DNA of 51,070 bases from a virus (lineage: Duplodnaviria > Caudoviricetes), in IMG/VR virus record IMGVR_UViG_3300005096_000013, positions 1 to 51,070 of that record. One strand, given 5' to 3'. The notes below the pieces were generated by a model. That model ran no database searches. It saw nothing but the letters and a program-made list of their open reading frames with translations, and was not told the DNA's origin. The translations under genes and the position numbers were made by a program. Each line of letters begins with the position of its first letter. Position 1 is the first letter of the stretch. Shown in pieces: positions 1-48,971 of the stretch.

Positions 1-875
1 ATCGTCAAAACTCCAGATAATTCTCCACATTTTACCGATTTTTAACCCTGATTTTGCTGTCCGGTCTAATCATTATCTCACCGTAATACTTATCCCCACA
101 ACCACCAGCGCCACCATATACCCAGTCGCCGCCCATACAATCCGAACCGGTTCTTACCTTTTTCCGTCCGTACCTCTATTACTCCGGGCCTCCACGCCCC
201 CGCCGCCAACAACGCAGATGATGAAACCCCCCGGAGAAAATCGTGTTGAGTTGGGGAAACACCTCTCTCGTACCACAAAAGCAAGGCCAAAAATCTCAAT
301 CCGGCGCACACCCCCAAAAAAATAAAAAAGTACAGCCCAAAAACTAAACCCCCCAAATTACCCAAACCCCCACTTTAACATACCCTACCAAATTGCTAGG
401 CGAAAAAAACCCCTCTCACGCCCCAAAAATGGACCTCCTTACAGAAATATCTAGAGAGGTGTACCCCCTACCCCCCCTAGTGTAGCTTGCTAAATTATTA
501 TAAAAGACTATACCAATCCCGGCTCGGCCATACCCATACCCTCTCTAGATAAAGCTGTAACGACCCCCCTTAAAGTACCCAAAAACGCGGATTCGGCCTG
601 TTTGGACCAAATTTTCAACCCCAAAAATCGCCAAAAAAGCGTGCGCCGGATGCAAAAATGACTGTACCAATTTTTAAGTGGCCCGGCTACAACAACTTAC
701 AACCCAAAAAAGAAGCCCGGAGTGAAAAATCTTGGTCAAATTGGTCCAAACCAAGTAATTCTCACTCCGGGCTCCATCCTTTTTCATCTACCGCCTATTT
801 GACGGCTATTTGATTGGACCAAACCCGACGCCCAGCAATAGATTCACTCCGGGCTCCATCATTATGGCATTGGAT
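1..875. other. Non-coding terminal region with A- and C-tracts; candidate origin/packaging region
   Basis: No credible ORF; runs of A and C; interrupted inverted repeat at 439-459/540-560; cluster of the 13-mer motif at its right end. Function is inference. Confidence 0.45.
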
Positions 876-2063
876 TCACTCCGGGCTCCTTAATAAGTTC
901 ATGATTTCCCCCGTTCCGTTGTTCAACCAGTATCGATACCCGTTAGAAATGGGACTCAACTCCGATTTGACCATCTTCAGCAACTCTAAATCTTCCATCC
1001 AACGCTGAAAGGCCGAACTTTTAACTCCTAATGCTTCCTGCAACTGCTTCTTCGTCACCTTGCCGCTTGGTCCATTACCCCCTCTGGCTTCCATCTCGTC
1101 CAAGCAGCCCAATATATGGCTTCGTATGGATGGAATCGAGTCCATCCCTACTTTCACAACCATCCGGACTATATCCTCCGTCACCCGGCTTTGTTCACGA
1201 ACCACCGTCAGGCTCTGCGTGAGGAGCACCAACTGTTTTATCAGCCTCGTAGGTATCTCAGGTTGTGGTAGGTACATCACATCTCTTGTGAACCGTTCCC
1301 GGGAGACCGCTCCCCGGCCCGTGCTGATGAACAGGGCCAACTTTTTTAGTACATCCATTACCTTCTCCGGTATCTTGACTTCCCGAATCTCCAGTTCCAA
1401 GAGTTTGTGGGCAGCCGCCCTCAGTTCCTCTTTCAGATTGCTTTCGTGGTTGCATGCCTCATGAGCTTTCGCCATCCTCAGGAGGATTTCCTCTTGGCTG
1501 GGGTCTGGCATCCGGTAATAGAGAAATCTCTCTCCAAGGTCCGATAACAAGAGTCGATGGTTCTCAATGGCTTTGGTCACTGCGGCAATCAGTCCGAACT
1601 TTGAGGTGTAGGAAATGTCTCGGCCACTTCCGAAGCTGGCACTGATTGTTCCGTCATATGCACTGCGGAGTTGGCCAAGCACCTCCCGGACCTCATCACT
1701 ACGTTTGGATAGCATTTGAGTGAAGTCCTTTATTATCAACACTTTACCGTGCAACTTCGGGGCTAGGCTGGGGTCCTCTTTGCCCTGTGCCAACTCCTCT
1801 GCTGACATCTCCTTACCACTGACCAACGCATGGGAGGTGAGGCTGTCTCGAATATAGACTTCCGGGTGGCCGTCCGTGCTTACTGCTATTTCGGTCTTGC
1901 CCGACGATGGGGGTCCTACAAGAAAAACCCATAAGGGGATGCTGTCGTATCTGTTGGCTAAGATGGTGCCGAAGATGAAGTCGATGTATTCCCAGTTGGA
2001 GGATACTAGCCATTTCTTAGCACACTTCTTGTAGTCATCGAGTCGGGTCATGGGCTGCTCCAC
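876..2063 (-). CDS. AAA+ P-loop ATPase, MCM-like putative replicative helicase with C-terminal winged helix
   Basis: Walker A GPPSSGKT, Walker B-like LIIKD, arginine-finger-like GERFL, HTH-like C-terminus (KKQLQEALGVKSSAFQRWMEDL). Confidence 0.7.
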   Translation of the reverse strand: MEQPMTRLDDYKKCAKKWLVSSNWEYIDFIFGTILANRYDSIPLWVFLVGPPSSGKTEIAVSTDGHPEVYIRDSLTSHALVSGKEMSAEELAQGKEDPSLAPKLHGKVLIIKDFTQMLSKRSDEVREVLGQLRSAYDGTISASFGSGRDISYTSKFGLIAAVTKAIENHRLLLSDLGERFLYYRMPDPSQEEILLRMAKAHEACNHESNLKEELRAAAHKLLELEIREVKIPEKVMDVLKKLALFISTGRGAVSRERFTRDVMYLPQPEIPTRLIKQLVLLTQSLTVVREQSRVTEDIVRMVVKVGMDSIPSIRSHILGCLDEMEARGGNGPSGKVTKKQLQEALGVKSSAFQRWMEDLELLKMVKSELSPISNGYRYWLNNGTGEIMNLLRSPE

Positions 2064-2199
2064 AGATTGAGGAAAGCCCGGCAGGGCAGAGAGGGAGAGG
2101 GTACGGTTGTGGAGTTGCCCCCTCTGTAAGTCCCCGCCGGACAGACCTTTAGCTTCTTTGCAGGAGAGGAATAAATCACTCCGGGCTCCATTTTATGCT

Positions 2200-2254
2200 T
2201 TGATTGTGTAACCGTACCGTCGTATAGTGTAGGGAATTTGGGTTCGGCTGTAAA
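2200..2254. promoter_or_regulatory. Overlapping divergent sigma70-like promoters
   Basis: Plus: TTGATT(2200-2205)-17-TATAGT(2223-2228). Minus: TTTACA(2254-2249)-17-TACACT(2231-2226). Lies between the divergent helicase and morphogenesis genes. Confidence 0.5.
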
Positions 2255-2324
2255 GCATTTTTGTTTTTTTGTTGCGTATTTTCCTCTTGTGTGTTTTAAT
2301 TGTAGTGGGAAATGGAGGTTACAT

Positions 2325-2765
2325 ATGGCTAAACGAGGCCCGGACAGGCTGGAGGAAGCTCTCGCAAAGGGTGCTTCCAAGGATACTTCTATACCTAGAA
2401 TCTTTAGCGCGTTGGGTTCTGAGGCAGAATCCCCCGACCCTCCTATTATAGCACCTACTGTCGGGAAGGGGGCTTTGCCTAAGAGGGCTCATATTGGTGA
2501 TTTAGTCCTTTTGGAATTGCGGGCTGTAGCTACTCTTTTTCGGATGAAACCTTTCCAAGTCAAGAGGTTTCTTCTTTCTCATGATGTCCCCTTGTTGAAG
2601 ATAGGGAAACGGCTCTGGGTCAATGAAAAGACTCTGGAGAAGGCTCTTTCTCTTTTGAGTGATTTAGGGGCTCAAGGTATAGGGGTAGAATACGAAAGGC
2701 AATTGCCTCAGGAGGAGTCCGAAGAAGATAGGAGGTATAAGAAGAAACGGAGGGAGTATTGGTAA
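2325..2765 (+). CDS. Putative DNA-binding protein (excisionase/HTH_17-like)
   Basis: GGAGG RBS before ATG at 2325; segment LELRAVATLFRMKPFQVKRFL...VPLLKIGKRLWV resembles the Xis/MerR-like HTH-wing. Confidence 0.5.
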   Translation: MAKRGPDRLEEALAKGASKDTSIPRIFSALGSEAESPDPPIIAPTVGKGALPKRAHIGDLVLLELRAVATLFRMKPFQVKRFLLSHDVPLLKIGKRLWVNEKTLEKALSLLSDLGAQGIGVEYERQLPQEESEEDRRYKKKRREYW

Positions 2766-3343
2766 AGAAGCAAATAGAAGATACTCAATTGGTAGAAATG
2801 AAGGAGGATGCTGGGGACCTTCTATCTGAGACTGTGGAGGATGTCTTTGCGGGCAGGCCCTTAACTTCTCGTGAGATAAAAGATGTTAAGGGTCTTTTGT
2901 CTTTTCAGAATCCTTTGGCGATTGGGCGGGCTCTCCGGGACCAGGGTTTCAGTTTGGACTTTTTGTTCCGGGAACTCTTTGTCTTGTATTTGGAGAGTGA
3001 GGAAATAGCTCAGAAGTTGAAGATATTGAAAATGATGGGGAGTTGGGCGAAGGATTCGGCGGCAGATTTGGTACGTCAAATGTTGAGTAGGCAATTGGTA
3101 GCTTCAGGTAGCCGTGATGGGGAAGCTCCTCCGGAGGAAGTGCGTGTGTTGGGTACTGGTGATTTGGGGGTGCCGGGAGTTCTAAATAAATTTATGGGTA
3201 CGGAACCTACGGATGACGTAGATTCCGAGGAAGGAAAGGATTCAGATGGGAAAGAAAATGAAGAAGAAAAGAAAGAAGAAGACGTTGGAGACGCCGAAGT
3301 CAGTCTTACCGGAAGTGTCCATTTCCCCCCCGAACATAATTGA
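2759..3343 (+). CDS. Hypothetical protein with acidic C-terminus (possible small terminase position)
   Basis: ORF coupled to the upstream gene, two genes before the large terminase. Confidence 0.55.
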   Translation: MVKKQIEDTQLVEMKEDAGDLLSETVEDVFAGRPLTSREIKDVKGLLSFQNPLAIGRALRDQGFSLDFLFRELFVLYLESEEIAQKLKILKMMGSWAKDSAADLVRQMLSRQLVASGSRDGEAPPEEVRVLGTGDLGVPGVLNKFMGTEPTDDVDSEEGKDSDGKENEEEKKEEDVGDAEVSLTGSVHFPPEHN

Positions 3344-6089: not shown

Positions 6090-8066
6090 ATGGCTGTTGA
6101 GCTTAGATTTCCAAAGAAAGAGGACGACCTCGTCGCGACTGTTTCCCGTATGCTCACGGACGGAGAGATTGCCAGGAAAAGAGAAAAGATTAAATGGATT
6201 CTTACTTCCCTGTATCTCCAAGGTACTCGTAATTATGAGAACGTGAATTGGGCTCAAGGGACTGTAACGGTCAACTATACGGGAATGGCAACGGATGAGT
6301 TGAATTTCCGTTATGAGGGGATTCTGGAGGTTTTTCAGACGGAACTGGGGCGGATGAGTCAGTTAGACATAACTCCAGTAGTCAAGAGTAAAGGACAGGG
6401 GTTGGATGACTTACAACATGCCAGCACTGCCCAGATAGTCCTCAACCACCAGATGAGTTCAGAGAGGGTGGAGGACCTTAAACAGCAGGCAATGCCGGTA
6501 TTTCTGAAGACCGGTACGCTTATACTTGGTGTGTTTGACAGTCCGGTGGCTGGTCCTCACGTGGAGTTGATACCTTCTTGGGAACTTTCTTCTATCCCTG
6601 CCTATCCTGTCATGGCCTCACAGGCTGATGGATATATTCGCACGAGATGGTTAACTGAAGAATGGTTGAAGTCCCGGAATTTCAAGATAAGTTCTGGAGA
6701 CAATCTGGAATTTATAGAACTGCCTATAGGTTTGGAGCCTTCAGAGGGTATGACCGGGGCCGGTACTGAAATGCTCAGTTCCTTGAGGGCCAACCAGAGC
6801 AGCCTCAATAAAAAAGAGACCCAAAAATGGTTCAGATTTACAGAGATATGGGAGAGAGATAGAGATACCAATAAATTATTGAGGTACATTGGGGTTGGGG
6901 GCAAAAAGAGATTGATAGATATAGACTATAGCGGGGAGCCTATCCCTATGCCTATCAATATTGCCCACTATATTGACGTGGGTGGTTTCTACGGGCGTGG
7001 GTTGGTGGACCAGAAGATACCCCTAAATAGTGAAATTGAGTTTATGCTCTCCCAGTTGTTCGCCAACGTGGAGAATTTTGACCAGTTTGGCTACCTCTGT
7101 ATATCTTCTCAAATGGGCCTATCCCGTGAGGAAATAATGGAGGCCCGGAGTACTGACAAGGTTTTGATTTACCAGCCTGAAGTGTATGACAGCAACATGC
7201 AGGCCCCCTTCGTCTTACAGCCTAGCAATTCCGGCAAGGCCCCTGTGGATATTGTGAACATAGGTCTGGGGCTTATGCAGGAAGGTTCTTCCCAATCTGC
7301 CCTGTTCCGAGGAGACGCACCGGGGCGGGTGGATAATGCCAGAGGCTTAAGTTTTCTCTACGAGACAGCCAATATACCTCTTTCCAGTCCAACTGAAGCC
7401 TTCTCCTCCTGCATGATTGAGACCTACAAGTCTCTGTTGTGGTTGACTCGCAGCCTGTGGACAGGGGATGAACTGGTAGGCATGACTATGGACGACGACT
7501 TGCTTGTGGGGGTCAAGTATGATGCCCACACTGGGCGGGTAGCCCTGACTCAATCCGCCATTCCCTTACCTGATGAAGTGGATATAAGTATAGGCTCTAA
7601 AACTCCGGTAAGTCCTTCACAGCAGAGGGCTGATTTGATGGACCATTTAGAGAAAGGGCTCATAACTCCCCGTGAATACAGGGTGAAATCAAGGGAATTA
7701 GGGTTGGGCCTACCATTGGGGAATGAGTATGAATGGCAGAGTTACCGCCGGGCTAAATTAGAAAATGTAGTATTGTACGGGAATGGTAAGGTGCCCGGTG
7801 AGGTCGTTTATAGTGATAACGATTTTCATGAGGTGCATCTTGAAGTACTATTACCTTTCATGGCTAGGCCGGAATATTATCTGGCTTCTCCAGAAGTCAG
7901 GGCAGCTTTTGAGGACCACAAGAAGAAACATGAGCAGGGATTGGGGCAGTATCCTGAAGCAATGCCTTATCCCGAAGAAGCAGCAATGGGCGCCATGCCC
8001 GGAGCCGGGATGTCCCCTATGGTTCCTCAAGGGGCACTATCTCAAGGCATGGCTCCTCAAGGTTAA
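6090..8066 (+). CDS. Portal protein (head-tail connector)
   Basis: 658 aa, follows terminase; GFYGRGLV motif, D-x-H-x2-H near the C-terminus and a Pro/Met/Gln-rich tail typical of podovirus portals. Confidence 0.8.
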   Translation: MAVELRFPKKEDDLVATVSRMLTDGEIARKREKIKWILTSLYLQGTRNYENVNWAQGTVTVNYTGMATDELNFRYEGILEVFQTELGRMSQLDITPVVKSKGQGLDDLQHASTAQIVLNHQMSSERVEDLKQQAMPVFLKTGTLILGVFDSPVAGPHVELIPSWELSSIPAYPVMASQADGYIRTRWLTEEWLKSRNFKISSGDNLEFIELPIGLEPSEGMTGAGTEMLSSLRANQSSLNKKETQKWFRFTEIWERDRDTNKLLRYIGVGGKKRLIDIDYSGEPIPMPINIAHYIDVGGFYGRGLVDQKIPLNSEIEFMLSQLFANVENFDQFGYLCISSQMGLSREEIMEARSTDKVLIYQPEVYDSNMQAPFVLQPSNSGKAPVDIVNIGLGLMQEGSSQSALFRGDAPGRVDNARGLSFLYETANIPLSSPTEAFSSCMIETYKSLLWLTRSLWTGDELVGMTMDDDLLVGVKYDAHTGRVALTQSAIPLPDEVDISIGSKTPVSPSQQRADLMDHLEKGLITPREYRVKSRELGLGLPLGNEYEWQSYRRAKLENVVLYGNGKVPGEVVYSDNDFHEVHLEVLLPFMARPEYYLASPEVRAAFEDHKKKHEQGLGQYPEAMPYPEEAAMGAMPGAGMSPMVPQGALSQGMAPQG

Positions 8067-8092: not shown

Positions 8093-8977
8093 ATGGACGG
8101 ACAAATACCAGAAACTACTGGCAATCTAAACCCGGAGGAACCCAACGTAACTCCAGAAGCGGTAAAGATTAAGGTAAATAAAGTTGAGAAAGAATTACCA
8201 CTCCCTGAAGTAGTAAAGTTGGCGGAAAAGGCAGCGGGGGCTGATGAAAAATTCAGAGAGGCGGCGGCTCTCCGGGAGAAGGCCAGCCAAGCTCTCGATA
8301 TTGTGGAGACGGTCAAGAAACTTCAGACCAATTTTGCCCAAGCTACGGAAGAAGAAATCAATAAATATTGTGACTTCTTTCAAATACCCGAAAAGGAGAG
8401 ACTCGAAATGCTTTATGGACCCAAGACCCCTCAAGAGCCTCAGGTTCCCACCACTCCGGGCTCCTCTGAAGTCCCTACTCCTCCTACGCCTGTAACTAAA
8501 GACCAATTGGACCCACAGTTACAGAAGGCGGTGGATGCTGCGATGGAGTTGAAGGTTCAAGAGGAGGAAAGGAAATTTACGAATAACGTAGAAAAAATGC
8601 TTGACTCCTCGGAGGAGATTGGTAAGATAGTTAAAGGATTGAGTAGTGAAGGTAAGAAAGATGTGTTTTCTTCCTTGCACGCTCAAGTTCGGAACGAGGT
8701 TATTGCCCGAATGCAGGCAGGGCAGCAGTATGGCGACTTAATGGTGAAGGAAGCCGTGGAGAATGCGGTCAAACATGTCACGAGTTTAGGTCGTCATCTG
8801 GAGGAGACCCGTAAATCTGAAGGTGTACAGCCTCCGGGATTCGGGGCGGCTCCTAACTCGCTGGGGCTTGCGTTCAAAGGTGATAAACCGCCAGAACGAG
8901 TTGCCGGTAAGGACCCCAATTACACGGAGAATTTCATTCAGAGATTAGCCTACAAGGTTATGCACTCCGGAAAGTAA
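8093..8977 (+). CDS. Putative capsid scaffolding protein
   Basis: Between portal and capsid; KIKVNKVEKELPLPEV motif, helical charged sequence; AAGGAG RBS. Confidence 0.7.
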   Translation: MDGQIPETTGNLNPEEPNVTPEAVKIKVNKVEKELPLPEVVKLAEKAAGADEKFREAAALREKASQALDIVETVKKLQTNFAQATEEEINKYCDFFQIPEKERLEMLYGPKTPQEPQVPTTPGSSEVPTPPTPVTKDQLDPQLQKAVDAAMELKVQEEERKFTNNVEKMLDSSEEIGKIVKGLSSEGKKDVFSSLHAQVRNEVIARMQAGQQYGDLMVKEAVENAVKHVTSLGRHLEETRKSEGVQPPGFGAAPNSLGLAFKGDKPPERVAGKDPNYTENFIQRLAYKVMHSGK

Positions 8978-10631: not shown

Positions 10632-10644
10632 GGAAGTATTTTTC

Positions 10645-10681
10645 ACTCCGGGCTCCTCTGGTGGGGTCCGGAGTTACTTTT
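10645..10681 (+). terminator. Rho-independent terminator built on one 13-mer copy
   Basis: ACTCCGGGCTCC-tctggt-GGGGTCCGGAGT stem (two G-U pairs) then TACTTTT, directly after the capsid stop. Confidence 0.7.
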
Positions 10682-14909: not shown

Positions 14910-16019
14910 ATGGCTGAAGTCTATCCTCCCAATTCATTGCGGGTCAGGCCCATAAGGGGATTCCACGAACCTTCTTTTCCAGAAACTACTTCTGAAGATA
15001 CCCTGAAGGACTTGGAGGGTTCGTCCAAACCTAAGGCCCCCCAAGTATCCATAGACGAAGGGCAAGGTAAGAGTGATGATAACTCCAACAGGTATGAGGA
15101 AGTCCTGCCCAATACTCCCCGGATACCGAGAGGTTTCGGATTCACTCCGGGCTCCTCCATATTTAGAGGTGAAGTTACTCAGGATGTCCAGACAACAGAT
15201 ACGACAGTAAGAGTTAAACTCCCGGACGGTGGAGGTTCGGTTGTGGACGCCGAATATCTATTCCCGGCTTCAGCAAGTCAGGCAGGGGACATAACCCCTC
15301 TGCCTTTAACAGGTGATGAAGTTACGGTTTTGAGGACCCGTGATGATAAATGGTATCTTATCACTCCGGGCTCCTCCATATCTTCCGTGGGCAGTACTCC
15401 CCTTTATATCGCCGAGATTGATTCGGCAGCTACAGGTGGAGGTTATTACAATTGTCATCTTCAATCTCTAGATTCTACAGATTGGAATACTTCTAACAGC
15501 GACCAATTGGACCCTGTAGGTAACAGCATAGTTGTACTCAATATCGCGGAGATTGGTACTTCAAATCATGGTCTGTCTGCTGGGGACGCTATGCTTTGTT
15601 GGTCTTTTACCGATGATGAAGGAGTTAATCGTTATTTGGGTGAGCAGACAGCTACTTATAGGATACGATTTGGTAAGCCTACTGCGGCTTATTCTTCTGG
15701 GTCAAGTCTCACCCTCGACCCCTGTGATATTGCAGGTAACGATACGGGGGAAGCAAACGTAACTGTAAACATGCTGGTTGGTCCGGGAGATACCCCAATG
15801 ACCAACTCGACTTCGATAGCGGATACAACTATCTGTCCATTTTACCGTGCATCCGATGGTAGTTATTATTTACTGGGTACTCCTATTGAAGTTGTGACGG
15901 ATTATCGAGTCAACACTACGAATAAGACTCTGGAAAAAATGACCCGTAATGTGTGGGTCCTAACGGCAGGCAGCGAAAGTAGTTGGGTTGTAGTACATAC
16001 AGGAGTTGATTGTACCTGA
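14910..16019 (+). CDS. Hypothetical virion protein
   Basis: Long ORF in the structural block; ATG at 14910 just after the upstream stop. Confidence 0.55.
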   Translation: MAEVYPPNSLRVRPIRGFHEPSFPETTSEDTLKDLEGSSKPKAPQVSIDEGQGKSDDNSNRYEEVLPNTPRIPRGFGFTPGSSIFRGEVTQDVQTTDTTVRVKLPDGGGSVVDAEYLFPASASQAGDITPLPLTGDEVTVLRTRDDKWYLITPGSSISSVGSTPLYIAEIDSAATGGGYYNCHLQSLDSTDWNTSNSDQLDPVGNSIVVLNIAEIGTSNHGLSAGDAMLCWSFTDDEGVNRYLGEQTATYRIRFGKPTAAYSSGSSLTLDPCDIAGNDTGEANVTVNMLVGPGDTPMTNSTSIADTTICPFYRASDGSYYLLGTPIEVVTDYRVNTTNKTLEKMTRNVWVLTAGSESSWVVVHTGVDCT

Positions 16020-24567: not shown

Positions 24568-24608
24568 AGGGCTTGGAATCACTCCGGGCTCCATAAGGAG
24601 TTTTTAAA

Positions 24609-28761: not shown

Positions 28762-28778
28762 CACTCTGGGCTCCTTAT

Positions 28779-29540: not shown

Positions 29541-29607
29541 ATCAATCTCCTTACAAGATACAATGGACTCAACAGACTATACCATTATAGCCCGATGGAG
29601 CCCGGAG

Positions 29608-30021
29608 TCAACCATTTTTTTTGTCAGGAATCCACTTCATCGTACCCAGTACGTCACTCTCTCGTATGAAAAGTAACGTAATCTTCCCAACCACAAGAGG
29701 TTGCCCGGCCATCCGACTCATCAATACGTAATCTCCTTCCTTGTAAAGTTTACATTCGGAGCCGATAGCCACTACTCTACCGTAAGGCATGGGTTCTTGG
29801 AAGGCATTGTCAGGCATAAAGATGCCTCCCTCTGTAACCTTACGTTGTTCAATTACCTGTACCATCAAGTAATAGGGAGAAGGCATAGGCACCGAAAGGT
29901 ATCCGGGTTCCCCTTTGGACTCCACAGGGATACTGTCGGGAGACTCCTTACGTTTAAGGGCAGCCTTCGCCGTCTTAAAATTCAAGGTTGATTTTCTGGA
30001 AGTCACTTTCTTTTTAGCCAT
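29608..30021 (-). CDS. groES: GroES-like co-chaperonin
   Basis: TEGGIFMPD mobile loop, GRVVAIG, KEGDYVL, IRESDVLG; GAAAGGA RBS before ATG 30021. Confidence 0.85.
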   Translation of the reverse strand: MAKKKVTSRKSTLNFKTAKAALKRKESPDSIPVESKGEPGYLSVPMPSPYYLMVQVIEQRKVTEGGIFMPDNAFQEPMPYGRVVAIGSECKLYKEGDYVLMSRMAGQPLVVGKITLLFIRESDVLGTMKWIPDKKNG

Positions 30022-33795: not shown

Positions 33796-34326
33796 TCAAT
33801 CACTCCGGGCTCCATACAACGCATACGCTACCATGTAATGTAGCAGAAACAAACCAAGTGCACGTCTTGTTTTTATCCTCTTATTACCAGGCAGGAACAT
33901 GACAGTAAAATCTTGCTGGGCTAAAACTCTGCAAAGGTTCTGGGTCATCAACATTCCCGAACCCGTCACTACATCATCTTCTATGAAGTCTCCCGGTTTA
34001 GCTTCAATAACTAGAACGGGATACCGGCAAGCCTTCTTCAGCCGGACAAAGGCCCTTCCTTGCCTCCGGGAGTCTCTACTAGAAATATTCGAATGAAGCT
34101 CCCGTCGTCCTGATTTACGCTCTATTATAACATCGTTTGGAAATTCTGCAAGTCGATAATCCCCCGACTTCAATGCCTTCTTGACCACCTTCACCTTGAT
34201 GACTCTGGTCCGGTGGGTGAATCTGTCCTTCATCTTGAAAGTTTCGGGGAACAGGAAAGGGTACTTCTCCCTAGAATCCACTTCTACAGTAAGGGTACTA
34301 GGACAAGATTTAGAGAACAGCCTCAT
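33796..34326 (-). CDS. ERCC4/XPF-type nuclease (putative resolvase)
   Basis: VDSRE, GDY, IERKS, LVIE motifs. Confidence 0.85.
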   Translation of the reverse strand: MRLFSKSCPSTLTVEVDSREKYPFLFPETFKMKDRFTHRTRVIKVKVVKKALKSGDYRLAEFPNDVIIERKSGRRELHSNISSRDSRRQGRAFVRLKKACRYPVLVIEAKPGDFIEDDVVTGSGMLMTQNLCRVLAQQDFTVMFLPGNKRIKTRRALGLFLLHYMVAYALYGARSD

Positions 34327-34330: not shown

Positions 34331-36334
34331 TCACTTTTCCTCTATTTCGTATTTTAAGGTGACAACCAATTTCCGGCTACGTTCAAATATATCCATAATG
34401 TAAGGCCGTGGCAATACCTTTTTTAATATTTTTTTTATAAAATCCACTTCCCCACGAGGCGAATCAATCAGAATGGAATCATAGGTCTGAGCACACATAG
34501 GAGCCCGGAGTGATTCCTTCCTCATTTCCATAAGTACTTGAAACTGAGCAGCTTGCGTTATCTGTGCGGCCACCGTCTGGATTGGGAAGTTGCATATTTC
34601 ATTGATGTAAGTCCTTCTAATGGTGGCGGGGCCCCCTGAAAATGTACGGCTCCAGCCAGTTTCTACCTCCAAATACCCCTGTTCTGAAGCCAGATTTATC
34701 AGGCTTTCCTGCCAACTTCGGAACTCGTGGTAGCGGGAATCGAACCGGGACAGGACTTCGTGACAGGCCCAACGGTTCATTTTCTCCTTGACTATCTTCA
34801 GGAGCTCCACGTTCTTCATTTCTCCTGCCATCTTGATGAGGGTCTCCAGATACTTGTTGGCCCCTCCCCTGTACAGCACAAGGAAGTTAAGAGTCTTACC
34901 CATCTGCCTCCATACCTTACGAAATAAAGGGTCATCGTTCGACAGCCGTACCCCGACGGTCTCGCAAATCATCTGCCCACTTACCGAGTGCCGGTCAATC
35001 CCTTGCTGAGTCTCCTCCACCATCAACCTATCCTGACTAAGTAAGGCTGCAATATACAGTTCCAATTGGCTGTAGTCCACGGAGAGTAGCTTACCTTGGG
35101 GCCACCGGCTTTTCATACACTCTCTCACTTCCGGGGGCCAAGTTTGGAAGCCCGGCTTTGTACATGTTATCCTGCCCTGTATAGTGCCATAAGCAGTCGT
35201 CGAACCTTTATGGGCGAAGCTAGGTACAAGGTGCCAACTGGGGTAGCAGCGAGGGACTCGGTGGCTGATTAGACCTTTAGAAGGCTTATGCAATAGGGGG
35301 ACGTAGTAACTATCCAAGAGTTTCTTATGGGCCACGTGGTCGTACATAAGCTGGCAGGCTTTATATTGAGGATGTGAAGCTGGTAGCTTGGACAATAGGA
35401 GTTCCAAGTTGGATTTATTCACACAGACCTCATGTTTCTTCTCGGTAAACTGGACTTCGGGGTCGTCCAATAAACCTCCTTCCATCGCTTCCATCACTAT
35501 TTTCTTTTTGTCACCGGCAGAACCTTTACCTGAAAGGCTGATGGAGTATTCACTCCGGGCTCCTTCTTCTAGCCTCTCTACTTCTTGGGTATGTTCCAAA
35601 TGTTTCCGAAGAAGTTTGTGCAGGTCCATCTGAATACCAGATTCTTTCATTTCTAAACCTATGCGGAGGAGACAATCCCGATGAGCCTTGCAGATACTGG
35701 AGAGTTTGGCACTACCGGGCCAGCGTTCCTTTACCCTAGAGAGAAGCAATCGGTAATGTTTAAGGTTATTGACAGCGTCCTCTACGTTGTATCTCTGTAA
35801 AGTCTTGTTGTGTCCAGATGTCACAAATTTCTGGAGCTCCTTAACACTAAGTTCCCCTTGTTGGTAGTCACCCACTCCAAACAAAGTACTGAGAGTTTTA
35901 AGAGACTTCTCCGGACGCTCCTCAAAGTCCAAGAAGTTGATAATGGCTACATCATCTAGTAAGATACGAGACTGGTTAGGATGGAGCCCGGAGTGATACC
36001 TGATGCTTCCACTTGCCGCCCGAAGGTACGAGAGGTCGAACAGGGTGTTAAAACCTAGCAGCGTGCTGCCATGCAATCTCATGAGACGGAACCATTCCTC
36101 TACTTTTCTGCGGTGGTTTTGTTCTTTCCAGACATAGAGGGCAGCGTCGATACCTCCGGGGGTTTCCCAAGCAAAAGCAACTGTAACTACTTGGCACTCC
36201 GGGCTCCTTTGGTCTAGTATTTTTGATTGGACAGGGTGGAAGAATCTCTGTTGCTGGCCTTTAAGGATGCCATAAGTCTCGATGTCTATACTTACAAGAG
36301 AAGGGAAGGTTGTCTGCATGGCTACCTCCTCCAT
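34331..36334 (-). CDS. DNA polymerase family A with 3'-5' exonuclease
   Basis: Exo motifs DIET, FNTLFD, YNVED; polymerase TIQGR, DYSQLEL, RQMGKTLNFLVLY, NFPIQ, TYDS. Start may be 36319. Confidence 0.92.
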   Translation of the reverse strand: MEEVAMQTTFPSLVSIDIETYGILKGQQQRFFHPVQSKILDQRSPECQVVTVAFAWETPGGIDAALYVWKEQNHRRKVEEWFRLMRLHGSTLLGFNTLFDLSYLRAASGSIRYHSGLHPNQSRILLDDVAIINFLDFEERPEKSLKTLSTLFGVGDYQQGELSVKELQKFVTSGHNKTLQRYNVEDAVNNLKHYRLLLSRVKERWPGSAKLSSICKAHRDCLLRIGLEMKESGIQMDLHKLLRKHLEHTQEVERLEEGARSEYSISLSGKGSAGDKKKIVMEAMEGGLLDDPEVQFTEKKHEVCVNKSNLELLLSKLPASHPQYKACQLMYDHVAHKKLLDSYYVPLLHKPSKGLISHRVPRCYPSWHLVPSFAHKGSTTAYGTIQGRITCTKPGFQTWPPEVRECMKSRWPQGKLLSVDYSQLELYIAALLSQDRLMVEETQQGIDRHSVSGQMICETVGVRLSNDDPLFRKVWRQMGKTLNFLVLYRGGANKYLETLIKMAGEMKNVELLKIVKEKMNRWACHEVLSRFDSRYHEFRSWQESLINLASEQGYLEVETGWSRTFSGGPATIRRTYINEICNFPIQTVAAQITQAAQFQVLMEMRKESLRAPMCAQTYDSILIDSPRGEVDFIKKILKKVLPRPYIMDIFERSRKLVVTLKYEIEEK

Positions 36335-41701: not shown

Positions 41702-42388
41702 TCAACTGAAAACCTCTAAAGGATTTAATGCTACTTTATATTTTATTGGAGCTTGACGTGTAGATTCCCATCGACCATCAAGGTAGTCCAACAGTAAAGA
41801 CCAGTGAACTTTAACAGCTTCAACAAGATGAGGCTTCCTACCGGGCAACAATATTGCAGGGTGGTAAGTTGCAAAGAACCTTGGATTGCCGGGTAACTCG
41901 GACAACTTAGCACCTTGTGAAGCAAAACCCTCTTTAAGAATTCGTCCAGTTACAGCCCTACAAGCCACTGCTCCTTGTACGAACAAGATAAGTTCCGAGT
42001 AGTAAGTAGATAACACTTTCATATCCTCAAGGAGATAGGGACGGCAACTCTTAATCTTGGAGTTAGTCGGTGTACTGTTCTGTTCAGGTCTGCACCTGCA
42101 AGCATTCGTAAGATAAACATCCACCTTTTCAGATAACTTCACCGAGTCCAGAAATCTGCAAAGCAACTGACCTGTCGGTCCAACCCACGACTTCCCTGCA
42201 ATATCTTCATGGTAGCCGGGAGCTTCACCTACTACCAGCACGGCCTTCTCATGATGGAGCCCGGAGTGACTCTCAACTTCATGTAACCTAGTAGGGAGCC
42301 CGGAGTGAACACACTGAGTCCACAATCCACACTTCTCGTTCTTGCAGGGATATGACACTCCGAAAATGTATGGCTCTACCTGTCCCAT
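41702..42388 (-). CDS. Uracil-DNA glycosylase family 4
   Basis: N-terminal Cys cluster, VGEAPG..E..G..WVG, TNACRCRP, TYHPA. Confidence 0.9.
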   Translation of the reverse strand: MGQVEPYIFGVSYPCKNEKCGLWTQCVHSGLPTRLHEVESHSGLHHEKAVLVVGEAPGYHEDIAGKSWVGPTGQLLCRFLDSVKLSEKVDVYLTNACRCRPEQNSTPTNSKIKSCRPYLLEDMKVLSTYYSELILFVQGAVACRAVTGRILKEGFASQGAKLSELPGNPRFFATYHPAILLPGRKPHLVEAVKVHWSLLLDYLDGRWESTRQAPIKYKVALNPLEVFS

Positions 42389-42675: not shown

Positions 42676-43031
42676 GACTGTTTCACCTCTCTTTCCATTT
42701 CAAGTTGAGTAATGAGTGAAGTAGGTTGGCCCGGCTGCAAAGGTATCTTCATCCAGACGGGTACGTACAGATGTTGGTTAGCCGAGACAAGCACTTGGGG
42801 AGATACACTGGAAGCTACTGACACTCCGGGCTCCTCTTTTACTTTGTGTTTGTCGAAGTCTTTCTTGGCCCTTCTTCTGTTGGCAGGCGTCACAGGCAAC
42901 GAAGTGTACTCGAATTCTTGCTCACTCCTTTGCAGTTTGTGCAGCGAGATTGCATGGTTCCGGTAACCTCCAAGGCTTCCACACACCTGTCCACAAGTCA
43001 AACATTGCACGTGTTCTTCTTTCTTTGCCAT
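42672..43031 (-). CDS. C2H2 zinc-finger-like protein
   Basis: CLTC-x12-H-x4-H near the N-terminus; AAAGGAG RBS. Confidence 0.6.
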   Translation of the reverse strand: MAKKEEHVQCLTCGQVCGSLGGYRNHAISLHKLQRSEQEFEYTSLPVTPANRRRAKKDFDKHKVKEEPGVSVASSVSPQVLVSANQHLYVPVWMKIPLQPGQPTSLITQLEMEREVKQS

Positions 43032-43435: not shown

Positions 43436-43884
43436 ATTTTTTTCTCCAATTCGGCCCGGTGTTTGAGGGCTACCCGGTGGGCCTTTTCCCTTGTAGCCAT
43501 AATTTCCAATATATCTTGAAGGTCCCTATCTTCCAACTCTTTGTACCAATAATAGAGTTTCTGAGAGTAGAGTAACAGGCTAGTATAAGACGTAGAGCTT
43601 CGTGACAATTCCCTTATGAAGTAGGGAGGTTGCTTCAGGTCGTAGCAAAATACCACGTATTTCCATATTGGGTAGGATGTGTGGTGCTTGGCGTTCCGGG
43701 CCAGTACGTAGTAGAGCGGCCCCGCCAACTTCCTACACTTGTAGCCTACTACACGAGAGACCTTTGCTGAAATGATAGAAGGTATGGGGTCCAGACGTAG
43801 AGCGGATAGCAGGACCTCGCGGGCTACTGTACGTTTGGGTTTCTTTGAATCTAGTACTCTTATCACTCCGGGCTCCTTAATCAT
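43396..43884 (-). CDS. Hypothetical protein directly downstream of E1
   Basis: Start overlaps the E1 3' end. Confidence 0.6.
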   Translation of the reverse strand: MIKEPGVIRVLDSKKPKRTVAREVLLSALRLDPIPSIISAKVSRVVGYKCRKLAGPLYYVLARNAKHHTSYPIWKYVVFCYDLKQPPYFIRELSRSSTSYTSLLLYSQKLYYWYKELEDRDLQDILEIMATREKAHRVALKHRAELEKKIWNQYQMGQYNDK

Positions 43885-46865: not shown

Positions 46866-47123
46866 TCAGTTGCCTTCCATCTTAGCCAAGCCAACCGTGA
46901 GAGTATCGCCCTCGTTGACTGTAGCCAAAGACTCTTCGGGATGGATAGTTTCCCAACCGGGGCAACCTGCTCTCCGGATTCTGATAGCGTGCTGGGCAGG
47001 ATTGTAACCTCCCACGTTCCCTAAAACATCATTGAGGATGTCCACTATCAAACTGTCTTCCGCGACAGCAATCCTTTCCATTCCCCCCGTTCCAGTCGTG
47101 TCAATAACCCTTACGTGCACCAT
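46866..47123 (-). CDS. Ubiquitin-like (beta-grasp) protein
   Basis: 85 aa; beta-beta-alpha pattern, EGDTLTV terminal strand, C-terminal KMEG-N; AAAGGAG RBS; first gene of the E2-JAB-E1 operon. Confidence 0.82.
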   Translation of the reverse strand: MVHVRVIDTTGTGGMERIAVAEDSLIVDILNDVLGNVGGYNPAQHAIRIRRAGCPGWETIHPEESLATVNEGDTLTVGLAKMEGN

Positions 47124-48029: not shown

Positions 48030-48044
48030 CTCTGTTGCTCCTTT

Positions 48045-48251
48045 CTATCCAAAGTAATCTGTAGTGAAGTCACCGCCCGGTCCAAACCTACAGAGAGGAG
48101 CCCGGAGTGAATCATTGTTTTTGTCTTCCTGCTTGGAGGGCTTTTCCTTTTTAGTCCCGTGCAAGGCTTCCATGATTTTATCTATGACCTCATCTGTCAA
48201 GATAAAGTCGTCCAGCCAAGCCCAATCATCTTCGTACCATGAGTACATGAT
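48045..48251 (-). CDS. Hypothetical protein
   Basis: GAAGGA RBS before MMYSWYEDD; 3' part of ORF-track 48045..48470. Confidence 0.5.
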   Translation of the reverse strand: MMYSWYEDDWAWLDDFILTDEVIDKIMEALHGTKKEKPSKQEDKNNDSLRAPLCRFGPGGDFTTDYFG

Positions 48252-48279
48252 GGTTCCTTCCTGTCCGATAATCGGACAA

Positions 48280-48510
48280 TTAGTTTTGATAGGCTCCAAG
48301 CCCTGCGTCCTCCGCATACTTCTCTGCTTCGTCATAATCCCAGCAGTCAGCGGTAGGGGATATACACCAAGGATGCCCACAGTAAGGGCAAGAGACAAGG
48401 TCCTGGTGAGGAGGGCAAAAGATGGTCTGGCCACAGATAGGGCAGGGGGTGGTACATTCTTGCCCCTCACGGATAAGTAGTTTGGGTCGTTTCATGGTTG
48501 GTCCTTTCAA
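48280..48510 (-). CDS. Zinc-ribbon protein
   Basis: CPIC...CPYC. Confidence 0.55.
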   Translation of the reverse strand: MKGPTMKRPKLLIREGQECTTPCPICGQTIFCPPHQDLVSCPYCGHPWCISPTADCWDYDEAEKYAEDAGLGAYQN

Positions 48511-48917
48511 ACTAGATGGATTACTTTTACCATTGTATCTAATTTGACCCCGACGTTCTCGCGATACATGCTAACGAGCTCCTCGTCATCTTTGGGAGTG
48601 GTTTCAAACTTGACAGGCACAATACCGTAGGCTTCAAAGGCTAAAGAAAGAGGGACGGTAGGTTCCAGCCAGATGGCTATCTTTCCCCGAATAAGAGGAG
48701 CCGTGGGGGTTTTATAGACAGGAATTTCAAGGTGAGATTCTCCTAATTCTACATTGAACCAGTCAAAAGCAGAGTAGATAAGAACTCTCCCCAGGTAGCT
48801 TGATGGAGTTTTAGTCTCGATGGCTGGTACAAAAGTTGCCCTCACTAAAACATTGTCCATCAACCAATTTACGGCTTGAGGGTACCGTGCGATTACAACA
48901 TACTGTTTGTTTGGCAT
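48507..48917 (-). CDS. Hypothetical protein
   Basis: GAAAGGAG RBS. Confidence 0.6.
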   Translation of the reverse strand: MPNKQYVVIARYPQAVNWLMDNVLVRATFVPAIETKTPSSYLGRVLIYSAFDWFNVELGESHLEIPVYKTPTAPLIRGKIAIWLEPTVPLSLAFEAYGIVPVKFETTPKDDEELVSMYRENVGVKLDTMVKVIHLV

Positions 48918-48971
48918 GAATGCTCCTTTCTATCCGATTATCGGACAAACATGGTTGGAGCCCGGAGTGAC

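Follow-up and report, generated by a model that had tools for sequence, protein, structure and literature searches.

The window analyzed here, a stretch of 51,070 nucleotides, is the genome of a complete, lytic-looking metagenomic phage that belongs to a large uncultured family with genomes of about 50 kb. The phage encodes its own PolA, UDG, SSB, Sak4-like annealase, and nucleases, a gene complement of the lytic type. Dispersed over this genome are 25 exact copies of the 13-mer CACTCCGGGCTCC, 16 on the plus strand and 9 on the minus strand, the first at 763-775 and the last at 48957-48969 (Table 1). Allowing at most one mismatch raises the number to 33 (eight one-mismatch copies), against 0.03 expected, and no copy appeared in any of 100 dinucleotide-preserving shuffles. 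The density is 0.5-0.65 per kb. Both the counts (at least 25 exact copies, 16 and 9 by strand, and about eight one-mismatch copies) and the coordinates of the original prediction were reproduced.

Table 1. Motif copies and associated features of the window
Feature	Coordinates	Strand	Basis
9-base core ACTCCGGGC alone, additional copy	181..189	+	
C/A-rich non-coding region, densest motif cluster, other short repeats (TTGGTCCAAA-type)	366..875		
One-mismatch copy (CACTCCGGGCTTC), back-to-back partner of 763	712..724	-	≤1-mismatch scan
Exact copy, left non-coding region	763..775	+	exact scan
Exact copy, left non-coding region	845..857	+	exact scan
SF3-type helicase, likely C-terminal winged helix; 5 motif copies flanking (712-889, 2177)	876..2063	-	
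Exact copy, final codons of SF3 helicase gene, antisense RSPE	877..889	+	exact scan, frame
Exact copy, between divergent gene blocks	2177..2189	+	exact scan
9-base core ACTCCGGGC alone, additional copy, portal gene	7143..7151	-	
Exact copy, scaffold-like gene, TTPGS	8452..8464	+	exact scan, frame
Exact copy 3' of capsid gene; 5' arm of terminator-like hairpin 10645-10675	10644..10656	+	
Exact copy, FTPGS	15143..15155	+	exact scan, frame
Exact copy, ITPGS	15362..15374	+	exact scan, frame
Exact copy, antisense GARSD	19515..19527	-	exact scan, frame
Exact copy, antisense GARSG	19983..19995	-	exact scan, frame
One-mismatch copy (CTCTCCGGGCTCC)	20448..20460	+	≤1-mismatch scan
Two-mismatch copy (TACTCCGAGCTCC)	20842..20854	-	
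Exact copy, FTPGS	20987..20999	+	exact scan, frame
One-mismatch copy (CACTCCGGGCTTC)	22640..22652	+	≤1-mismatch scan
Exact copy, antisense KEPGV, back-to-back partner of 24580	24444..24456	-	exact scan, frame
Exact copy, intergenic	24580..24592	+	exact scan
One-mismatch copy (TACTCCGGGCTCC)	27637..27649	-	≤1-mismatch scan
One-mismatch copy (CACTCCGGGCTTC)	27975..27987	-	≤1-mismatch scan
One-mismatch copy (CTCTCCGGGCTCC)	28636..28648	+	≤1-mismatch scan
One-mismatch copy (CACTCTGGGCTCC), directly 3' of 1042-aa gene	28762..28774	+	≤1-mismatch scan
One-mismatch copy (GACTCCGGGCTCC), intergenic	29597..29609	-	≤1-mismatch scan
Exact copy, PD-(D/E)XK exonuclease gene, antisense LEPGV	32639..32651	+	exact scan, frame
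Exact copy, ERCC4 nuclease gene, antisense GARSD	33801..33813	+	exact scan, frame
Exact copy, PolA gene, sense SLRAP	34500..34512	-	exact scan, frame
Exact copy, PolA gene, antisense GARSE	35551..35563	+	exact scan, frame
Exact copy, PolA gene, sense HSGLH	35983..35995	-	exact scan, frame
Exact copy, PolA gene, antisense RSPEC	36195..36207	+	exact scan, frame
Exact copy, UDG gene, sense HSGLH	42256..42268	-	exact scan, frame
Exact copy, UDG gene, sense HSGLP	42295..42307	-	exact scan, frame
Exact copy, 119-aa zinc-finger-like ORF, antisense EEPGV	42822..42834	+	exact scan, frame
Exact copy, antisense KEPGV	43864..43876	+	exact scan, frame
Exact copy, sense SLRAP	48097..48109	-	exact scan, frame
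Exact copy, intergenic	48957..48969	-	exact scan

Around the 25 exact copies, position -1 is T in 20, positions -2 and -3 are A/T in 19 and 21, respectively, and the base directly after the motif is A/T in 24; G is absent throughout from the three bases on the 3' side. The extended consensus is WWT-CACTCCGGGCTCC-W, near the TCACTCCGGGCTCCW given previously. Farther out, the flanks of the exact copies show no relatedness, and the copies are therefore not copies of a longer element. A technical artifact (adapter sequence or misassembly) or a miniature mobile element has only the oddity of an exact 13-mer in its favor and is extremely improbable: besides the unrelated flanks, the ORFs are uninterrupted across all 19 coding copies, independently assembled relatives have versions of their own, partly at the same protein positions, and sites are conserved among diverged genomes.

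Of the 25 exact copies, 19 fall within ORFs of at least 60 aa and six outside such ORFs. The coding copies occupy all six frames (sense 3, 2, and 4; antisense 4, 2, and 4) and write the peptides HSGL, SLRAP, TPGS, GARS, EPGV, and RSPE; the polymerase gene (34331-36334, minus strand) has four copies in four readings (HSGLH, SLRAP, GARSE, and RSPEC). The computed frames bear out the earlier statements on six-frame use, the polymerase, and the two HSGL readings in the UDG gene. When the ORFs were put through 300 synonymous-codon shuffles, an average of 6.05 exact copies remained and never more than 7, with the six intergenic copies, which the procedure leaves untouched, forming the baseline; the 19 coding copies thus stand against about 0.05 expected. 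Between relatives, the exact motif was retained at the aligned position in 204 of 307 ordered comparisons (nine loci, about 75% identical DNA; the conserved instances make up 10 orthologous groups only), compared with 5-12% for control 9-mers in the same comparison. Given the six frames, the codon shuffles, and the retention at orthologous sites, selection targets the DNA and not the protein, as had been claimed.

Most relatives examined contain their own version of the word: CTGCTGAGG occurs 54 times in 55.5 kb, CTGCGGAGG 57 times in 50.6 kb, CTGTCGGGG 52 times, TGCAGGGGC 30 times, CTGCGGGGC 29 times, CTGGGACCACC 17 times, and CGTGGTTCCAGA and CCGGGACAAGG 9 times each, with further versions in additional genomes. 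Most versions are asymmetric and G-rich on one strand, and they group along the terminase tree (47 sequences); within the CTGCGGAGG clade, phage GC content ranges from 41 to 55%. Protein alignments yielded 33 coincidences between sites of different versions versus 8.3 expected when PolA is counted twice, and an estimated 22 or so versus 6.5 without the duplicate. In the PolA alignment, the sites of four relatives fall within 4 columns, and the window's copy (34500..34512) is 5-8 columns off. The window's 13-mer is one version of a family-wide site system.

The density (0.5-1.1 per kb), the placement on both strands and, within genes, in every frame, and the occurrence of different versions are reminiscent of DNA uptake sequences (DUS/USS; PMC1939737), so that the word could have been imposed by the host, as an uptake sequence or another host repeat copied in by drive or recombination. 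We consider this very unlikely. In partial scans, the 14-mer yielded single occurrences only in 66 viral contigs and, among the matches listed, in at least 120 genome and at least 120 metagenome stretches; CTGCGGAGG was at background level throughout 5 + 151 genomes (156, a partial sample). No host repeat equal to the motif was seen in these partial scans. One version, moreover, spans phages of 41-55% GC, and uptake, as described in the available text of PMC1939737, is independent of orientation, whereas orientation here is strongly structured.

With respect to transcription, the sites of six genomes combined are 108 sense, 109 antisense, and 37 intergenic. This split sustains the mismatch noted earlier with the L5 stoperators, whose orientation follows transcription, and weighs against a phage repressor that blocks transcription across the sites, a reading of similarly low probability. 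Cluster A stoperators resemble the motif in length, copy number, asymmetry, and lineage-linked versions, as far as the available texts go (PMC6550527; PMC9283540): the window's motif has 13 asymmetric bases in 25-33 copies per roughly 50 kb, and its versions co-vary with the lineage. However, genes hold 19 of the window's 25 exact copies, no integrase, partition, or repressor family was detected among 47 ORFs, and the pairing and per-strand spacing described below play no part in the stoperator model.

On each strand, sites are spaced more evenly than random (Stouffer z = -4.77 for seven genomes and -5.29 for seven others), gaps exceeding 2.5 times the mean are scarce (7 versus 21.5 expected; second set, 6 versus 19.4), and strands alternate in excess (168 versus 138 expected, z = 3.7; 170 versus 128, z = 5.3), with the caveat that the 14 genomes are related and some have common orthologous sites, so that the pooled statistics overstate independence. 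In the window alone, the per-strand spacing is no more even than random (CV 0.94 and 0.89). Opposite-strand neighbors are predominantly back-to-back at short range (15:1 at ≤60 bp, 14:5 at 61-150 bp, and 45:21 at 151-400 bp) but not past 1 kb (49:109); their median separation is 449 bp in the back-to-back arrangement versus 1453 bp otherwise (p = 2.7e-17). Back-to-back pairs are closer in 13 of the 14 genomes, including the window (496 versus 2430 bp, p = 0.010). Thus, the sites are polar, evenly placed per strand, and arranged in back-to-back pairs. The previous description of the orientation as mixed holds in that it bears no relation to transcription but misses this structure. The family-wide versions and the polar, evenly spaced, paired organization of the sites add to what had been noted before. 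Polarity, even spacing, and pairing argue against readings in which orientation plays no role, such as compaction, uptake, or a symmetric binder that simply marks the phage's own DNA, and favor a directional DNA process.

One such process is recognition of the word, on one strand, by a translocating helicase-nuclease (a host RecBCD/AddAB-type or phage enzyme), which would be switched from degradation to recombination and so shield phage DNA from breaks in either direction. The sites are polar, asymmetric, and mostly G-rich on one strand; their presence in both orientations everywhere, with even per-strand coverage and a scarcity of long gaps, meets the needs of protection against random breaks; the family has recombination genes of its own (Sak4-like, SSB, and PD-(D/E)XK exonuclease); and the versions could follow host enzymes. 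Nevertheless, this Chi-like function appears unlikely. Known Chi sites comprise 5-8 bases, whereas the window's site has 13 fixed bases plus flanks. By our arithmetic, the mean protection is independent of the phase between the series on the two strands, so that Chi logic gives no reason to expect the enrichment of close back-to-back pairs. No helicase-nuclease is universal in the family, and the GC range of a single version and the background-level and single-occurrence results of the partial scans count against this reading as well.

Alternatively, a site-bound protein could halt or orient a translocating machine, such as an SMC-type loop extruder, a host defense translocase, or a packaging or ejection motor, in the manner of orientation-dependent barriers, which diverge at boundaries and converge across loops. 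Close divergent pairs between long convergent intervals, even coverage, and independence of genes (a gene end falls within 16 of 73 close pairs versus 21 expected) are consistent with such polar roadblocks or anchors. The capsid gene is free of sites in six of six genomes. This absence could mean that occupied sites are a burden in the most expressed gene, but protein constraint explains it equally well. No binder or motor was identified, and to our knowledge, no polar roadblock system has been described in phages, nor did a literature search reveal one; we regard this possibility as rather improbable.

We tentatively propose, at somewhat less than even probability, that a strand-specific DNA process starts or is loaded at these polar sites and that a co-evolving factor reads them. 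Selection on the double-stranded genome, apart from genes and transcription, upholds the polar sites; a single site would act in one direction, a back-to-back pair would form a two-way unit, and even per-strand spacing would leave no long stretch without a site in either direction. We infer that replication or recombination is initiated in this way, with priming of DNA synthesis, loading of a helicase or replisome, and programmed nicking that feeds replication or recombination as candidates. The DNA between the members of close pairs is not AT-rich (GC +0.7% versus the genome, p = 0.29, n = 68) and therefore does not resemble classical unwinding elements; local GC skew showed no dependence on site orientation.

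The reader would evolve together with the phage lineage and is probably phage-encoded, although it may instead be host-encoded. In the window phage, the SF3-type helicase is a candidate: its gene adjoins the densest cluster, in which 4 sites lie within 180 bp, and its fold corresponds to that of the helicase half in phage primase-helicases. This helicase is present in four of the seven complete or near-complete genomes compared, and two others (G003 and G004) have DnaB-like helicases in its place. Another candidate, ERCC4, is absent from G004 and, at E ≤ 0.001, from 5 of 10 additional genomes. The proteins common to all seven genomes are terminase, portal, capsid-module proteins, SSB, Sak4, and PolA-UDG, none with a sequence specificity known to us, and no reader was found among the proteins compared across these genomes. 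No Pfam primase family was detected among the ORFs scanned in five genomes. The four binders suggested originally (2325-2765, 42376-42675, 42672-43031, and 49616-50500) could not be tied to the motif, and only one, a putative small terminase (2238-2765), is conserved family-wide. The original interpretation is partly supported: the sites are dispersed, specific, and not assignable to a described system known to us, but the proposed binders could not be connected to them.

Programmed nicking like that of single strands in the virion DNA of T5, phiKMV-like, and tf/LUZ24-like phages, but here affecting both strands, also seems unlikely. In the phage tf, the asymmetric 9-mer TACTRTGMC occurs 14 times (0.3 per kb, near the window's density), nick-site positions of the tf type are alike in four related phages, and the main nick site differs by one base between relatives (PMC3517423). 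In every case described in the available text of that source, all sites are on one strand, whereas here both strands are used (16 versus 9 copies in the window, a ratio near 1:1 in relatives). With up to 57 sites, some 23-60 bp apart on opposite strands, the DNA would be fragile, and no nickase is known or was found. The phiKMV nick consensus, CGACxxxxxCCTA/CTCCGG, includes ACTCCGG, identical to seven bases of the window's motif (PMC3517423; 10.1101/619015); this match could be due to chance, at an estimated few percent given the number of motifs compared.

If the sites are start units, 15-28 two-way units in 50 kb would be without precedent; if they are nicked, persistent nicks on both strands would endanger genome integrity. 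Chi, uptake sequences, stoperators, and one-strand nick sites each fail a defining test, and the evidence points to a dispersed, site-specific, DNA-level system that matches no described one. In favor of the proposed start or loading sites, the motif has in common with the known phage nick-site systems, as presented in the available text of PMC3517423, asymmetry (a 9-mer in tf), versions that differ among relatives, and conserved positions. Like the window, tf has convergent gene blocks.

The 13-base word CACTCCGGGCTCC occurs in 25 exact copies in the window (16 on the forward and 9 on the reverse strand) spanning positions 763 to 48969, whereas 100 dinucleotide-preserving shuffles yielded none; allowing one mismatch adds eight copies, for 33 against 0.03 expected. 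Alignment of the exact copies gives the extended consensus WWT-CACTCCGGGCTCC-W, with T at position -1 in 20 of the 25, A or T immediately after the motif in 24, and no G in any of the three bases that follow. The word differs from its own reverse complement and is thus non-palindromic. Beyond three bases, the flanks of the copies show no relation to each other, so the motif is a site and not a repeat element; a miniature mobile element or longer repeat was ruled out on the same ground and because the open reading frames (ORFs) stay open. Nineteen exact copies fall within ORFs of 60 aa or longer, where all six frames are represented, and the family A DNA polymerase (PolA) gene alone holds four, with four different readings. 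The original prediction of a genome-wide word written through coding sequence in all six frames, four times in differing frames in the polymerase, is therefore borne out. It also holds against codon-shuffled genomes: 300 synonymous-codon shuffles left a mean of 6.05 copies (maximum 7), corresponding to the six intergenic copies that the shuffle does not touch, so that protein sequence and codon usage account for none of the 19 coding copies. The motif is real and strongly non-random, as well as more general and more structured than could be seen from this one sequence.

The copies are mostly dispersed (28 of the 33). One dense group comprises four sites in 180 bp within a C/A-rich non-coding region that contains other repeats, and together with a fifth copy it flanks a gene for a putative superfamily 3 (SF3) helicase (see the table of window features). 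The left region shows a GC skew of -0.22 over the first 2 kb and harbors several other short repeats, including TTGGTCCAAA-type palindromes. A motif copy directly after the capsid gene pairs with a degenerate inverted copy into a 12-bp hairpin, of which it makes up the 5' arm, and a U-rich tract comes next (-23.4 kcal/mol, z -4.6). This hairpin, a rare close face-to-face motif pair, looks like an intrinsic terminator made from the motif.

Features of the window, with coordinates and strands
Feature	Position	Strand
C/A-rich non-coding left region	366-875	
TTGGTCCAAA-type palindromes	600-613, 738-751, 811-823	
Densest motif cluster	712, 763, 845, 877	-, +, +, +
Putative SF3-type helicase	876-2063	-
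Fifth motif copy near the helicase gene	2177	
Capsid protein	9066-10631	+
Hairpin resembling an intrinsic terminator	10645-10675	+
GroES (Cpn10) homolog	29608-30060	-
Acidic concanavalin/LamG-like protein	32754-33728	-
PolA	34331-36334	-
Uracil-DNA glycosylase (UDG)-like protein	41702-42388	-
Small basic HTH/zinc-finger ORF, weak GcrA-like match	42376-42675	
Small basic HTH/zinc-finger ORF	42672-43031	
MazG-like protein	43073-43435	
Ubiquitin-like conjugation gene set	43877-47123	-
ThiF-type E1	43877-44572	-
Protein with JAB motif HxHx7SxxD and weak IBR match	44575-45573	-
448-aa protein, CxxC zinc-ribbon-like repeats in C-terminal third, 39 Cys	45507-46853	-
85-aa ORF	46866-47123	-

The large terminase has more than 150 metagenomic homologs with 35-49% identity, and many of these lie on 45- to 56-kb contigs. 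Using an alignment of 26 homologs, 559 related stretches were recovered from viral contigs; 80 of them were retained for k-mer counting. The original prediction had left it open whether related phages would carry the same or a different dominant word; most of the relatives have a dominant GC-rich word of their own, as whole records confirm, and less than one copy is expected in every tabulated case. Compared to the window, with its 13 invariant bases and flank preferences, the words of the relatives are shorter, at 9-12 bases.

Dominant words in relatives of the window phage
Relative	Word	Copies	Length (kb)
G001	CTGCTGAGG	54	55.5
G002	CTGCGGAGG	57	50.6
G003	CTGCGGGGC	29	52.2
G004	CTGTCGGGG	52	47.1
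G005	TGCAGGGGC	30	59.5
G011	CTGGGACCACC	17	54.4
G012	CGTGGTTCCAGA	9	36.7
G015	CCGGGACAAGG	9	18.6
G166	GGCCTCCGCAG	22	52.0
G167, G168, G171, G172	CTGCGGAGG	35-43	42.6-56.7
G169	CTGCTGAGG	48	53.7
G170	TTGCAGGGG	29	54.0

Among the remaining relatives, G173 has only a sparse longer word (ACCAGCCTCA, seven copies) and G174 a modest one (CTGGTGGA, 18 copies). No clear word was detected in the distant relative G175 or in the 24 kb examined of G013, the closest terminase relative of the window phage (50% identity). G173 and G175 (loci L304-L309) contain tandem arrays instead of a strong dispersed word, of the GGTA type and the GGTCGAGGTCG type, respectively. The versions of the word group into clades on a terminase tree of 47 sequences, and the clade of the window has the longer and rarer words; GC content ranges from 41% to 55% among the phages of the CTGCGGAGG clade. 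The versions resemble each other (TCTG-y-N-G-r-GG and derivatives) and have a flank preference in common: T stands at -1, and G is nearly absent from -3 to -1. On sequence grounds, they look like one recognition sequence drifting over time. Two terminase homologs (P0008 and P0106) exceed 1,000 aa and contain intein/LAGLIDADG-type domains (PF14528 and PF14890), indicating inteins in the terminase of some relatives. The terminal repeats of 114-127 bp in the relatives labeled "DTR" are read as assembly overlaps and not as true genome ends.

The positions of the sites are partly conserved. Nine CTGCGGAGG-clade loci, which are about 74-76% identical over 8-12 kb, were aligned pairwise; of 307 ordered comparisons, 204 (66%) showed the exact motif where the alignment places it, compared to 5-12% for control 9-mers irrespective of their GC content. 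The raw count overstates the sample size, since the conserved instances fall into just 10 orthologous site groups, but the difference is large. Between lineages, protein alignments placed sites of different versions within four alignment columns 33 times against 8.3 expected, a comparison that counts the polymerase twice because PolA and UDG of the window both map to the fused gene of the relatives; discounting the duplicate set, we estimate about 22 against about 6.5. Near the C-terminus of PolA, four relatives (G001, G002, G003, and G005) have their own versions at the same alignment columns and in the same orientation, where they read LLR, LRR, LRG, and LQG, respectively; the window copy that reads SLRA lies 5-8 columns from this shared site. 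Since different versions coincide in PolA, the word has changed and at least some of the sites have changed along with it in place. Selection acts on the sites, in part at fixed positions. No site occurs in the major capsid gene or its orthologs in any of the six genomes compared, although one or two would be expected in the denser ones. An apparent asymmetry between 5' and 3' flank divergence in 40 instances of conserved sites is not established, given that these represent six independent site groups, five of them negative (Wilcoxon p 0.09).

The orientation of the sites bears no relation to transcription. Summed over six genomes with our own crude ORF calls, 108 sites are sense, 109 antisense, and 37 outside ORFs; for the 9-base core in the window, the corresponding numbers are 11, 15, and 6, and the strand split in the relatives is near 1:1. 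With both strands pooled, the spacing is near random or only mildly regular (CV 0.58-1.01). Along each strand, the sites are spaced more evenly than random (Stouffer z -4.77 for 14 strand sets from seven genomes and -5.29 for seven further genomes): very short gaps are under-represented and long ones more strongly, with 7 gaps exceeding 2.5 times the mean against 21.5 expected in the first set and 6 against 19.4 in the second. The strands also alternate more often than under permutation (168 against 138.1, z 3.7; 170 against 128.3, z 5.3). In the window alone, even per-strand spacing was not seen (CV 0.94 and 0.89).

The strongest pattern is the arrangement of close neighbors on opposite strands, which are preferentially back-to-back, that is, in the 5' to 3' direction of either strand, a reverse-complement copy followed by a forward copy, with the TCTG ends (TCAC in the window) facing each other. 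In 16 genomes, back-to-back neighbors outnumber the opposite arrangement 15 to 1 at distances up to 60 bp, 14 to 5 at 61-150 bp, 45 to 21 at 151-400 bp, and 51 to 35 at 401-1,000 bp, and the ratio is reversed beyond 1 kb (49 to 109). The median distance is 449 bp for back-to-back and 1,453 bp for convergent (face-to-face) neighbors (169 and 164 intervals, Mann-Whitney p 2.7e-17, a pooled value that overstates independence because the genomes are related and some share sites). Back-to-back neighbors are the closer ones in 13 of 14 genomes, and the window follows with medians of 496 and 2,430 bp (p 0.010). The pairing recurs in lineages with different versions of the word, namely, the window, G001, G003, G004, and G170. 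It is unchanged by reverse-complementing the genome and hence independent of the deposited strand; the window fits it with CACTCCGGGCTCC taken as forward, which supports aligning that orientation with CTGCGGAGG. Three tests of the idea that the pairs are origins gave no signal: the DNA between paired sites is not rich in AT, no switch of GC skew with orientation was seen, and gene ends are not preferentially enclosed by pairs (16 of 73 pairs, with 21 expected).

Any model of these sites has to explain a polar site with no link to transcription, even coverage in each direction with few long gaps, an approximately twofold enrichment of close back-to-back pairs, strong conservation, and versions that drift with the phage. 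One possibility is a process that would start or load at the site and move one way. Two sites placed back-to-back would then act as a two-way unit whose products travel in opposite directions until, in the long convergent intervals, they meet products of neighboring units; close face-to-face sites would collide at once. Given suitable polarity, template-strand priming, helicase loading, and nicking followed by extension or resection could all fit. Such one-way starting or loading is the simplest model that predicts both the per-strand coverage and the pairing, and we put its chances at somewhat below even. Nicks that persist on both strands would be prone to break up the genome. Per-strand coverage is also what a Chi-like signal predicts, but, by our own arithmetic, a preferred phase between the series on the two strands is not; DNA uptake, compaction by a symmetric binder, and plain self-marking are blind to orientation and so make no prediction of strand-wise order. 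A broader proposal for this large uncultured phage family, which we regard as less likely than not, is that polar, lineage-specific pairs every 1-3 kb on both strands organize replication or recombination of the entire chromosome from many two-way start units and without a recognizable primase, or else act as oriented barriers that fold or shield the genome, while the factor that recognizes them re-tunes its specificity for 9-13 bases along the phage tree and dozens of sites follow in place. If so, the system would define a new class of viral chromosome architecture and not a variant of stoperators, nick sites, or Chi.

The window, the entire 51,070-bp IMG/VR virus record, is estimated to be 97% complete and consists of two convergent gene blocks. 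The forward block encodes a putative small terminase, large terminase, portal, scaffold, and capsid proteins, followed by large virion proteins; the reverse block, with the early and replication genes, encodes PolA, a separate family-4-like UDG, an ERCC4 nuclease, a PD-(D/E)XK exonuclease, a Sak4-like annealase, SSB, a GroES homolog, and a MazG-like pyrophosphatase. Small HTH and zinc-finger ORFs are present, but none of the 47 window ORFs scanned matched integrase, partition (ParAB), or repressor families. There was no hint of an RNA guide in the window (no Rfam family at the gathering score and no tRNA gene). No cultured phage matched the window at near identity, and all protein-level matches to cultured phages were below 27% identity; a search of viral contigs with PolA as the single query gave no match.

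The UDG-like protein is encoded about 5 kb from PolA in the window but is fused to the PolA N-terminus in all six relatives compared (open frames of 866-903 aa); its family-4 motif GEAPG is intact in the window and varies in the relatives (GQHPG, GQSPG, and GMAPG). The window has a ubiquitin-like conjugation gene set, and ThiF and JAB pairs are found also in G003 and G011. A concanavalin/LamG-like protein is encoded within the replication module, between the exonuclease and ERCC4 genes, and likewise in G003. The GroES homolog carries a basic N-terminal extension of about 60 aa, and G011 has a 95-aa GroES homolog adjoining the portal gene. Four relatives (G001, G003, G004, and G011; loci L268, L274, L277, and L282-L283) encode nucleotide-pool enzymes, namely, dATP/dGTP diphosphohydrolase, a nucleoside 2-deoxyribosyltransferase-like protein, dNMP kinase, NT5C, and MazG, which hint at modified or policed DNA precursors. 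The same four encode DNA methyltransferases of three different families, which are missing in the window, where the MazG-like gene is the only nucleotide-pool gene.

All seven complete or near-complete genomes share the terminase, portal, scaffold, a 150-aa head-module protein, two large virion proteins, SSB, Sak4, and PolA-UDG, and most of them also have the capsid protein, the putative small terminase, the exonuclease, and ERCC4. Searches of Pfam, NCBIfam, PHROGs, and PDB sequences, and of Atlas for ORFs of no assigned function, revealed no protein that is both universal and sequence specific; they identified an SF3 helicase and a weak GcrA-like HTH protein (E 0.008). The putative helicase of the window has a Walker A motif, and in its Atlas model the fold corresponds to the helicase portion of fused phage primase-helicases (TM 0.88-0.91 by query). 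We interpret the protein as a helicase of the SF3 type; a C-terminal winged helix is predicted from the sequence. This C-terminal domain is a fair candidate for the factor that recognizes the word in the window phage, and the two small basic HTH/zinc-finger ORFs, one of them the GcrA-like protein, are other candidates. SF3-type helicases are encoded in the window, G001, G005, and G011, and DnaB-like helicases instead in G003 and G004. No Pfam primase family was detected in the scanned ORFs (47 of the window, 75 of G001 and G003, and 67 of G004 and G011). The ERCC4 gene adjoins the polymerase gene in most genomes; as a universal enzyme, ERCC4 was ruled out, being not found in G004 or in 5 of 10 further genomes.

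The word could also be specified by the host. Single copies of the 14-mer TCACTCCGGGCTCC were found in each of 66 other viral contigs, in a scan that ran to completion, and in each of at least 120 genome stretches and at least 120 metagenome stretches; among the matches listed, no record except the window contains multiple copies. The word CTGCGGAGG is at background level (0-186 copies, similar to the reversed-word control) in 5 diverse and 151 Bacteroidota genomes. The word length in the window, the persistence of one version across phages of 41-55% GC, and the tracking of the phage tree all favor a phage-encoded factor, which we infer to be the more likely alternative by a clear but not overwhelming measure, in a comparison that covers samples of genomes. 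A cluster look-up yielded Bathyarchaeota, from a labeled MAG, as the sole host name, which we do not accept.

Dispersed sequence-specific sites in phages are rare and poorly understood. To our knowledge, stoperators are the only well-explained case, and the role of nicks in T5, phiKMV, and tf has been a question for decades. In the phages described here, one site system exists in a natural series of at least 10 versions, spread over many complete or near-complete genomes. Its measurable rules, namely, polarity, coverage of each strand, back-to-back pairing, and co-evolution in place, make the question testable: from the versions one can predict which protein residues have to co-vary, and from the pairing rule in which direction the process runs. 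Should the sites start or steer replication, they would represent a new viral way to copy a 50-kb chromosome; if they are nick sites, they would be the first two-strand case and might explain the purpose of such nicks. A compact protein that recognizes 9-13 bases with re-tunable specificity would be of practical interest.

We found no description of a two-strand, pair-organized phage motif system in the openly accessible literature; searches for dispersed or evenly spaced phage motifs and for nick-primed replication gave no matching system, and those with the words themselves returned only primers. Each of the known families compared differs in at least one testable defining feature, so we file the motif under none of them. 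Known Chi sites are host-specified words of 5-8 bases. Like Chi, the phage word is polar and strand specific, is required in both directions, and has a coverage that matters; unlike Chi, it is longer (9-13 bases or more), follows the phage lineage, occurs in back-to-back pairs, and was not seen enriched in the genomes searched. At the origins of SF3-helicase initiators, such as the P4 alpha iterons and the SV40 T-antigen pentamers, short asymmetric sites in inverted pairs load helicases that move apart; these sites group at one or two origins and keep a fixed spacing. The SF3 helicase gene next to the densest site cluster of the window recalls this arrangement, but here the sites are genome-wide and variably spaced, and some family members lack an SF3 helicase. 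The uptake sequences DUS and USS and the HIP1 element show a similar density of about one per kb, location inside genes in all frames, and versions, but they are properties of host chromosomes, whereas the present sites belong to phages, are polar, and are organized by orientation. According to the available text of PMC1939737, DNA uptake is independent of orientation, in contrast to the strand alternation (z 3.7 and 5.3) and the closeness of back-to-back pairs (p 2.7e-17) found here, and HIP1 is described in the accessible part of PMC4390886 as a palindrome, unlike the window motif.

The stoperators of Cluster A phages (L5) are asymmetric 13-bp sites in tens of copies over about 50 kb, with versions that co-vary with lineage, as far as the accessible part of PMC6550527 describes them, and the window motif is alike in length, number, and co-evolving versions. 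In the same part of that account, stoperators are co-oriented with transcription and serve lysogenic immunity (PMC6550527), whereas the orientation of the present sites ignores transcription, most of them lie within genes, and no lysogeny genes were found among the 47 ORFs.

Closest in form are the nick sites of T5-, phiKMV-, and tf/LUZ24-like phages. In the available portion of PMC3517423, those of the tf/LUZ24- and phiKMV-like phages are short asymmetric words, over-represented and running through genes, at similar positions among relatives and with a one-base difference in the word between relatives. The window and its relatives likewise have an over-represented asymmetric consensus at positions conserved among relatives. 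The phiKMV consensus, given as CGACxxxxxCCTA/CTCCGG in the parts available of PMC3517423 and 10.1101/619015, has ACTCCGG in common with the window motif, and tf has convergent gene blocks, as does the window (PMC3517423, available portion). The nick sites described in that portion, 4-14 in number, are all on one strand (PMC3517423), whereas the window has 16 forward and 9 reverse sites, and the complete or near-complete relatives with a clear word have 17-57 copies at near 1:1 between strands, in back-to-back pairs and evenly spaced along each strand. This dispersed, lineage-specific phage site system is of a kind that has precedents, and its rules are without precedent.
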